64,000 bases of DNA from Bdellovibrionota bacterium (GTDB taxonomy: Bacteria; Bdellovibrionota; UBA2428): the NCBI GenBank assembly GCA_035539375.1, contig DATLIP010000010.1, positions 6,364 through 70,363 of the forward strand, read 5' to 3'. The position numbers and the translations under genes are program-made. How positions within the stretch are numbered: position 1 is the stretch's first letter; each line of letters begins with the position of its first letter. The notes beneath the pieces were generated by a model that was not told the origin of the DNA, did not search any database, and saw only the letters and a program-made list of their open reading frames with translations. This document shows positions 13,117 to 13,923 of this stretch, in pieces.

Positions 13117-13923
13117 ATGAACGCAAAACGATGCCTATTCGTGGTTTTTGGAATGCTCCTCAGCGCGACCTCTGCTCCAGCTCTCCAAGTTTCAGGGGAA
13201 TCCCTCGACGCCAAAACTTATCGCGCGAGCGAAGACGTGGCGCAGAGCTTTTTGAGCCGCGCACTAGCCTCTGCCGAAAAGGTGGGCCTGAGCGAGCCCG
13301 ATTGTTTTTTGGCCCACGCAGTTTTTGTTTACGACCTTTGCTTCATCGCCAAGGCGCGCGTCGCCATTGAAAAACTCCCCGCCGCTCATCCGCTGCGCAA
13401 GCTGAATGCGGCCGAAGCCGGCGTGCTGCGCTCGTACATGGATCGCGAGTACCAGGTGATCAACGAAGCCCTGCGCGGGGACGAGGCCGCCAAAGTCGAC
13501 GCTGTCGCGCTTGAAATCAAACTGATGCTCTCGGGATTGAACGCGCTTCCTAAGAGTGGCAAGACGGAGCTCTATCGCAACGAGACCTTCTTGTGGGACG
13601 CCGACGCACCTCAGGCCGAGATCGACGAAGTGGCGGACCGTTTCGTGGAAGGCGGGAACTTCGAAACTTCTGCGTTCTTGAGCACCACGCTCGGCACCGA
13701 TCCCGGCGCGCGTGAGCAAATCCTCGACGGCGCGCTGGTGCTGCTAAAGATTCGCGCCCAGGGCGCCAAGTCGGTTGCGGAAATCTCTCCGCGTCCCTAT
13801 GAGCAAGAGTACCTTTACGCGCCAGGCACGCGCTTTCGCGTGCTTCGCAAGGCGAAACACGAGGTGGGCTCGGGCAAAGCCCGGCGTACGGCCTACGTTA
13901 TCGATCTCGAAGAAATTCGCTAG
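13117..13923 (+). CDS. Secreted mono-ADP-ribosyltransferase toxin (C3/Vip2-like, R-S-E class)
   Basis: Sec signal MNAKRCLFVVFGMLLSATSAPA|LQ. Motifs LRSYMDREYQVINEALRG (Y..Y..iN..LR), Arg motif TELYRNETF, S-T-S-type motif SAFLSTTLG, and ARTT/catalytic motif PYEQEYLYAPGTRFRV (E-x-E). Confidence 0.8.
   Translation: MNAKRCLFVVFGMLLSATSAPALQVSGESLDAKTYRASEDVAQSFLSRALASAEKVGLSEPDCFLAHAVFVYDLCFIAKARVAIEKLPAAHPLRKLNAAEAGVLRSYMDREYQVINEALRGDEAAKVDAVALEIKLMLSGLNALPKSGKTELYRNETFLWDADAPQAEIDEVADRFVEGGNFETSAFLSTTLGTDPGAREQILDGALVLLKIRAQGAKSVAEISPRPYEQEYLYAPGTRFRVLRKAKHEVGSGKARRTAYVIDLEEIR

Follow-up and report, generated by a model that had tools for sequence, protein, structure and literature searches.

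The DNA analyzed here is a 64,000-nucleotide (nt) stretch, referred to below as the window, of contig DATLIP010000010.1 from a Bdellovibrionota bacterium (assembly GCA_035539375.1). At the center of this analysis is a gene for a predicted exported mono-ADP-ribosyltransferase (ART) of 268 amino acids (aa). The genes for a secretin, a secretion ATPase and an inner-membrane platform protein run divergently from it as an operon, and on its other side a methyltransferase gene converges on it. The positions of these genes, of their motifs and of the corresponding sites in related contigs are collected in Table 1.

The ADP-ribosyltransferase and its predicted export signal

The ART product matched the Pfam family ADPrib_exo_Tox (PF03496) over profile positions 14–190 of 196 with 45.3 bits (E 7.9e-12), above the cut-off of 23.4, and a sequence search of the PDB gave XopAI, ExoT, Tre1 (a Serratia toxin), C2-I, SpvB and Vis among its matches. 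Because of these two results, a chance pattern of motifs is ruled out. An AlphaFold2 model, for which the input was a family alignment of 14 sequences, had a mean predicted local distance difference test score (pLDDT) of 90.6 and a predicted template-modelling score (pTM) of 0.86, with a pLDDT of about 54 over aa 1–20 and above 87 beyond. It displays the fold, of mixed alpha/beta type and built around a beta-sandwich core, that is expected of an ART. When this model was compared with the PDB using Foldseek, 148 matches were obtained at E<=1e-3, and all 50 of the 50 listed were ADP-ribosyltransferases. XopAI (7e-13) was the first of these, followed by Tre1, Certhrax, C2-I, Vis, ExoS, CDTa, iota Ia, Vip2, C3 and HopU1, with E values of up to 1e-9. 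In a viral structure library, the same procedure matched phage and giant-virus ARTs.

The identity of the window ART to any solved R-S-E member is only 12–24%, and the NCBIfam equivalog model for XopAI (NF041404) gave 44 bits against a cut-off of 300. Judged from sequence and model together, the product is an R-S-E-class mono-ADP-ribosyltransferase of the ADPrib_exo_Tox (C2/C3/ExoS/HopU1/Tre1-like) superfamily with a predicted activity, and its annotation as a toxin is robust. By sequence it adds to a well-known toxin superfamily a member that belongs to a small new subfamily.

The R-S-E class is defined by four motifs, namely aliph-R, arom-R ([YFL]-R), STS (S-[TS]-[STQ]) and [QE]-x-E (PMC6829252), and all four are present in the window ART. 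The last three lie within ELYRNE (aa 151–156), FLSTTL (aa 187–192) and PYEQEYLY (aa 227–234). In the alignment of the 14 family members (A1), F187 and E231 are invariant, and N116 of the helix motif, R154, S189 and E229 are nearly so. E229-x-E231 is aligned opposite the EQE of both XopAI and ExoT. In this ART clade, E-x-E goes with arginine as the acceptor, and by analogy it suggests that the window ART would modify an arginine of its target protein. The earlier note on this DNA, which was made from the letters alone, had described a 268-aa open reading frame with a cleavable-looking signal peptide and a C3/Vip2-type motif set in the right order. This description was confirmed: every motif it quoted was found in the translation, PF03496 matched above its cut-off, the predicted structure is that of an ART, and the N-terminus is Sec-like.

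The N-terminus carries two K/R residues, which are followed by a 13-residue hydrophobic core (Kyte–Doolittle maximum of 2.6 at aa 6–16) and by an A-x-A at positions -3/-1 of the putative cleavage site. An N-terminal hydrophobic segment is present in 12 of the 13 relatives, and in several of them it is followed by a lipobox-like Cys. The N-terminal ~70 residues, which contain the Cys pair C63/C75, are specific to the small family of the window ART, and a C63–C75 disulfide is possible. The gene call on an identical metagenome contig (L001) starts the ART at M13 (13153 instead of 13117), which gives a protein of 256 aa that has lost its signal peptide. We favor M1 as the start since the aligned relatives have N-terminal hydrophobic or lipobox segments. 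The secretin was also started late on that contig (V35, 12933 instead of 13002), downstream of a probable signal peptide. As both gene calls begin past the probable signal peptides, the database versions of the two proteins appear to be N-terminally truncated.

Among 1.84 billion representatives, an exhaustive search picked out 93 relatives of the ART at E<=1e-3. Of these, 13 reach E<=1e-10 and two reach E<=1e-30, and one of the two is the gene call of the window ART itself. The full-length relatives are 25–37% identical to it and have the same architecture throughout. In a word-indexed homologue search, the ART recovered no more than its own sequence and one weak match, and neither the ART nor the secretin alignment had a relative in scans of species-representative genomes. 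The relatives of both proteins come from metagenome assemblies and from contigs of public sequencing runs (Logan). Viral contigs contained one distant ART (24% identity), which was uninformative. On this evidence, the ART family is a very small, metagenome-only set of predicted signal-peptide or lipoprotein ARTs. Relatives at 26–36% identity occur in gene contexts other than the secretin operon. A 28%-identical member adjoins an integrase of the phage type and a gene for a Prok-E2/ThiF/JAB fusion (L012, 8001–8885 and 9284–14740), so that at least a part of the family would reside in mobile or defence-island contexts. This is the only long contig among the distant relatives, and no secretin lies within 8 kb of the integrase-linked copy.

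The secretin operon and its predicted promoter

The secretin start that we use is the ATG at 13002 and not the TTG at 13035 that opens the longest reading frame, as follows from an alignment with four homologues. The start of the ATPase was inferred from the lengths of its homologues (304–307 aa) and from their overlaps. The platform homologues are 296–305 aa long, and a sequence search of the PDB with the platform protein gave no match. As the three genes overlap (by 17 nt and through an ATGA), they look translationally coupled.

In the PDB, the ATPase is closest to CpaF (1.4e-26), followed by VirB11, while GspE is matched at 7e-8 only. Its best NCBIfam model is TIGR03819 of the TadA family (E 7.5e-51), although the score of 173 bits is below the cut-off of 373. 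The profile of the secretin alignment (A2) matched 8jvb (a secretin of Acidithiobacillus), PilQ and RcpA, the secretin of Tad systems. The model of the secretin monomer was of moderate quality (pLDDT 65) and pointed, in Foldseek, to the generic secretin superfamily with no subtype resolved; the N-terminal 240 aa match no family. A six-frame search of the 64 kb for prepilin, pseudopilin or Flp motifs yielded only false positives, in the alanine dehydrogenase (AlaDH) and in one other reading frame, and motif searches and Pfam scans of the large reading frames detected neither an Flp pilin nor a prepilin peptidase in the window.

Since the ATPase is nearest to CpaF, the platform has one T2SSF domain, the secretin matches include RcpA and no pilin or pseudopilin motif was found in the 64 kb, the module is, as far as its sequences tell, a stripped-down Tad-like set and not a type II secretion system (T2SS). 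It resembles the Tad/Flp (type IVc) systems, including Myxococcus Kil and Bdellovibrio Tad, in that the best matches of its secretin include RcpA, PilQ and 8jvb, its ATPase is CpaF-like and its one-domain platform is TadB/TadC-like. However, it consists of three genes only, and Flp pilin, CpaB, CpaE, TadZ and a prepilin peptidase were not seen locally. Its ATPase is also only 310 aa long, and it has a sigma-54-type promoter with a very short leader.

A comparison of the regions upstream of the secretin in six loci shows that they have a single conserved block, TGG(C/T)A-N6-TTGC(A/T), which ends 11–17 nt before the ATG and leaves a leader of only a few nucleotides. The corresponding pattern, TGGYA-N6-TTGCW, matches the 64 kb once (13016–13031), with 0.41 matches expected. 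The element fits the -24 GG and -12 GC boxes of sigma-54-dependent promoters (TGGCAC-N5-TTGCW). As this element is conserved upstream of the secretin in all six loci, the operon is predicted to have an RpoN-type promoter of its own whatever lies upstream, and this promoter would be older than the ART or independent of it. A shared upstream activator motif in the six loci did not rise above shuffled controls, and no enhancer-binding protein gene was identified. A scan of 12700–14700 for sigma-70 promoters and terminators found nothing in the divergent intergenic region, the structure of the secretin leader RNA was not significant (z = -0.96), and an Rfam search of the whole window found one tRNA-Leu only.

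The earlier note had placed the ART divergently beside a secretin–ATPase–platform operon, which is borne out, and had put their starts about 80 nt apart. This distance is 81 nt when measured from the TTG at 13035, but 114 nt when measured from the supported ATG. It had also suggested that the two units probably share a control region. The divergent spacer is indeed there, but the secretin promoter is conserved regardless of the upstream gene, and no upstream motif that the loci share was detected.

A variable slot upstream of the secretin

Relatives of the secretin are few, and the module and its flanks are syntenic in the contigs L004/L005, L006, L007, L008 and L017. The shared gene order is S1, response regulator, ~700-aa SH3 protein and ~195-aa protein, then platform, ATPase and secretin, then a slot, and then methyltransferase, NUDIX, AlaDH and glycosyltransferase family 2 (GT2). 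It is the content of the slot that varies (Table 1). L006, L007 and L008 have the operon with no ART, so the operon is independent of the ART, and the ART is dispensable for the three-gene module. In L004, the slot holds an orphan reading frame (ORFan). Its product has a clear signal peptide, MKFHLARFITTLAFLATTISSHA↓SS (the arrow marks the predicted cleavage site), and no relatives in Pfam, the PDB or the sequence databases. We considered whether this protein is a relocated copy of a 483-aa reading frame of the window and rejected it, as the two have no similarity. The earlier note had treated the toxin and the module as a pair that should be conserved, and in this respect the pairing turned out to be patchy.

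The methyltransferase of the window has a C-terminal extension (PSEFLRDR) of ~6–8 aa relative to those of L004 and L006, exactly where its gene overlaps the 3' end of the ART gene. Flanking repeats that could be the footprint of an insertion were sought around the ART, and none was convincing. Two further observations concern L007. Its methyltransferase upstream of the secretin (8730–9962) carries an Rce1-like/CPBP intramembrane protease domain as a fusion partner, and a HigB/helix-turn-helix toxin–antitoxin pair lies nearby (2963–3573).

A probable second instance of the pairing comes from the ends of a short contig, L003, of 904 nt from the same metagenome sample, which carries the closest homologue of the ART (P0003, 38% identity). 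A distance of 7 nt separates the start codon of this homologue from a sigma-54-type pattern on the opposite strand. Such a pattern is expected only ~0.0003 times per 100-nt stretch on one strand, which makes a coincidence unlikely. Beyond the pattern, the contig ends in '...CATAT', which is like the secretin starts ('CATATG') in L004 and L006. Past the stop codon of the homologue, the reverse strand reads '...MVIKKA*', which resembles the methyltransferase C-termini VVRKA and VIRKA. Very probably, then, L003 has the same arrangement of methyltransferase, ART and secretin, as judged from the 14 and 36 nt at its two ends. The short ART contigs were also searched by tblastn for pieces of a methyltransferase or secretin gene, which are too short to reach significance. 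The GC contents of L003 (45.6%) and of the window (about 58%) differ by more than 12 points.

Table 1. Features of the ART–secretin locus in the window and corresponding sites in related contigs (↓, predicted cleavage site).
Feature	Locus	Position	Strand	Basis or remark
Coding sequence, predicted 268-aa exported R-S-E mono-ADP-ribosyltransferase	window	13117..13923	+	reading frame list, Pfam PF03496, AlphaFold2, Foldseek
Predicted Sec signal peptide, aa 1–22, MNAKR / CLFVVFGMLLSAT / SAPA↓LQ	window	13117..13182	+	hydropathy, A-x-A site, family comparison
Cys pair C63/C75, N-terminal helical region	window	13300..13344	+	kept in 10/14 ART family members
Helix motif LRSYMDREYQVINEALRG, aa 104–121, including aliph-R L118-R119	window	13426..13479	+	aligns with ExoT helix 'alglytngeyqhlnrslrq'
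arom-R Y153-R154, predicted NAD-binding Arg on strand beta1	window	13573..13578	+	alignment, strand 150–158 in model
S-T-T (STS) motif S189-T190-T191	window	13681..13689	+	alignment, strand 188–191 in model
ADP-ribosylating turn-turn (ARTT) loop E229-Q230-E231 ([QE]-x-E), E231 presumed catalytic Glu	window	13801..13809	+	alignment
Divergent intergenic region, secretin ATG to ART ATG, 114 nt, 46% GC	window	13003..13116	.	start codons
Sigma-54-type -24/-12 element TGGCAGGCATTTTGCT, 13 nt upstream of secretin ATG	window	13016..13031	-	pattern scan and six-locus comparison
Sigma-54-type element	L004	9970-9985		
Sigma-54-type element	L006	6142-6157		
Sigma-54-type element	L007	9971-9986		
Sigma-54-type element	L008	2801-2816		
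Sigma-54-type element	L017	30-45		
Sigma-54-type element	L003	15-30	-	
Secretin, 416 aa	window	11752..13002	-	Pfam Secretin E 5e-20; start by alignment with four homologues
CpaF/TadA-VirB11-like secretion ATPase, 310 aa	window	10836..11768	-	Pfam T2SSE E 8e-34; 17-nt overlap with secretin 3' end
Inner-membrane platform, single T2SSF domain, 305 aa	window	9922..10839	-	Pfam T2SSF E 3e-8; ATGA overlap with ATPase stop
S-adenosylmethionine-dependent methyltransferase beside slot	window	13898..14515	-	Pfam Methyltransf_11 E 8e-14; last 26 nt overlap ART 3' end convergently
Slot: ART	window			
Slot: empty	L006			53 nt from methyltransferase to secretin
Slot: empty	L007			38 nt from methyltransferase to secretin
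Slot: empty	L008			NUDIX directly into secretin
Slot: unrelated 484-aa ORFan	L004/L005	8401-9855 (L004)	-	divergent from secretin, 145-nt gap
Slot: outside contig	L017			contig ends 56 nt upstream of secretin

Export, target and alternative readings

The reading that we prefer is that the gene encodes an exported R-S-E ART, predicted to be catalytically competent, and that it is an accessory gene in a variable slot between the methyltransferase and the secretin promoter. We put the probability of the two parts taken jointly, with the route across the outer membrane left aside, at about 0.7. The ART precursor would cross the inner membrane through Sec and be cleaved after A22, and the mature protein would probably form the C63–C75 disulfide. 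It would be harmless to the producer in a periplasm that lacks nicotinamide adenine dinucleotide (NAD+). If it folds only there, outside the NAD+-containing cytoplasm, no immunity gene would be needed. Pfam, NCBIfam and PADLOC scans found no immunity-type or defence gene near the ART (PADLOC gave no meaningful match), and there is no room for a further gene besides the ART between the secretin promoter and the methyltransferase. After leaving the cell, the ART would reach the NAD+-containing cytosol of a target and ADP-ribosylate a component of it, the E-x-E suggesting an arginine.

With the C2/C3-like exotoxins (C3bot, C2-I, iota Ia, CDTa, Vip2, Certhrax, Vis and ExoS/ExoT), the window ART shares the fold, the four motifs, the E-x-E of the Arg-specific members and the predicted export. 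In contrast to them, it has no B component, no second, ART-like adaptor domain and no type III secretion system (T3SS) chaperone-binding region. Nor does it resemble one half of a binary AB toxin (C2, iota, CDT or Vip1/2), as it consists of a single ART domain and its neighbors are a secretin and a methyltransferase.

Several points weigh against our preferred reading. The start of the ART gene is ambiguous: M13 would abolish the signal peptide, and neither start is preceded by a clear Shine–Dalgarno sequence. XopAI, the best structural match, is itself probably inactive as an ART, although its motifs are degenerate whereas those of the window ART are intact. In GC content and codon use, the ART gene is like its host, so that its composition gives no independent sign of a recent insertion. 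Finally, should the reading of L003 be right, the slot may have held the ART ancestrally and lost it in other loci, and this would fit a functional link to the module better than it fits an accessory gene.

Such a functional link was proposed by the earlier note in the form of a dedicated two-step cassette. The ART would be exported by Sec and would then pass through the neighboring secretin, driven by the ATPase and the platform. On this view, the slot could be taken as a cargo slot for differing effectors. We consider this doubtful. In its favor, Sec export of the ART, a prerequisite for secretin-dependent secretion, is predicted, and the divergent adjacency with 114 nt between the start codons is real. 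In L003, the ART homologue adjoins a sigma-54-type element and secretin-like and methyltransferase-like contig ends, and the slot of L004 is taken by another divergent gene, the product of which has a clear signal peptide. In predatory bacteria, contact-dependent killing requires Tad-like machines, which have been proposed to deliver toxins that are yet to be identified (PMC12075869).

However, the module is intact beside an empty slot in three contigs, and it keeps its own promoter whatever lies upstream, with no common upstream motif detected. Its ATPase is CpaF-like and not GspE-like, and no pilin or pseudopilin motif was found in the 64 kb, so that the machine is Tad-like rather than T2SS-like. 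Distant relatives of the ART are encoded elsewhere, one of them beside an integrase and with no secretin in the surrounding 8 kb, and the L003 instance depends on two very short contig ends. The occurrence of the pairing in two GC-diverged genomes, and of another exported protein at the same place and in the same orientation in a third, is suggestive, but general synteny means that the shared position could have arisen by vertical descent alone. There is a precedent for Sec followed by a secretin in cholera toxin and the heat-labile enterotoxin (LT), the A subunits of which are R-S-E ARTs with a signal peptide. These toxins use a full T2SS (~12 genes with pseudopilins, a GspE-type ATPase and a two-domain GspF) and a B pentamer, whereas the window module has three genes, is CpaF/Tad-like and comes with no B subunit.

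If the idea is carried further, the module would be a minimal sigma-54-driven Tad-like machine that works as a protein exporter in a lineage that is uncultured and possibly predatory, and the slot would hold its cargo genes, which in two diverged genomes encode an Arg-specific ART and in a third a different secreted ORFan. We regard this as unlikely, but it would matter if it were true, as it would be the first sequence-level link of a Tad-like apparatus to a defined toxin, and a reproducible toxin–Tad linkage would provide a concrete candidate toxin. We found no paper in the literature that links mono-ARTs with Tad systems. Should the linkage be positional only, the ART would be an ordinary accessory exotoxin gene. 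The ART alone is a modest addition, namely a sparse subfamily of R-S-E proteins with signal peptides or lipoprotein signals. The less ordinary element is the three-gene, sigma-54-type Tad-like operon with a variable slot that twice holds genes of exported proteins.

Our preferred reading assumes a protein target in another cell. An exported ART could instead act on a small molecule, on a nucleic acid base or on the envelope proteins of the producer itself. Secreted R-S-E ARTs that modify guanine do exist (the Scabin/ScARP type), and several relatives of the window ART are predicted lipoproteins that may be anchored to the envelope of the producer. On the other hand, NAD+ would not be expected in the periplasm, and the closest structural relatives all modify proteins, so we find this alternative very unlikely.

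We give even less weight to the view that the protein is a pseudo-enzyme or an arginine-peptide-binding protein, in which the ART fold does not bind NAD+. This view derives from XopAI, which is the top match by sequence, by NCBIfam and by structure and the active site of which was reported to be unsuitable for NAD+, its motifs being degenerate (FTG, AAS and VLE; PMC6829252). XopAI and HopU1 are also the best overall matches by sequence and structure, and these matches extend over the region N-terminal to the ART core as well (E 7e-13 for XopAI; query-normalized TM score, TMq, of 0.61 over 268 columns for HopU1). The intact motifs of the window ART matter because its top match has three degenerate ones and probably does not bind NAD+. 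The window ART keeps Y-R, S-T-T and L-R, which are conserved in its family, and it falls far short of the score of a XopAI equivalog. Moreover, XopAI and HopU1 are T3SS effectors of plant pathogens and have no Sec signal, whereas the window ART has a Sec-type one.

Equally improbable is a Tre1-type contact-dependent interbacterial toxin, delivered by a type VI secretion system (T6SS) or similar and paired with a cognate immunity protein: Tre1 of the Serratia T6SS pair Tre1–Tri1 is among the best matches and shares the compact R-S-E core (24% identity, TM score of 0.78–0.82 on the target, or about 0.8), but the window ART has a Sec signal in place of a PAAR, Rhs or VgrG-type carrier domain and is not half of a toxin–immunity pair, as no immunity or ADP-ribosylhydrolase gene adjoins it and its neighbors (secretin, methyltransferase and NUDIX) are kept in relatives that have no ART.

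Some other genes of the window deserve a mention. A 713-aa protein (7174–9315, +) and a 201-aa predicted lipoprotein (9312–9917, +) are encoded by overlapping genes, and as every related locus has them convergent to the platform gene, the two proteins might belong with the secretin module. The 713-aa protein has an HExxH-like motif (HELYH), SH3 domains and a C-terminal Phe, which is a feature of outer-membrane barrels. Lineage-specific proteins are plentiful in the window, many of them ORFans, and it contains reading frames of 1549, 1025 and 679 aa (25194–29843, 40556–43633 and 52009–54048, all on the - strand) with no Pfam match at E<=1e-5. A 575-aa reading frame (47017–48744, -) combines NuoB (Oxidored_q6) with NuoD (Complex1_49kDa) and is a fused complex I subunit, and a mevalonate-pathway cluster (58857–63595, -), which would be compatible with a member of the Bdellovibrionota or Myxococcota, encodes a GHMP kinase, a diphosphomevalonate decarboxylase and an HMG-CoA reductase.

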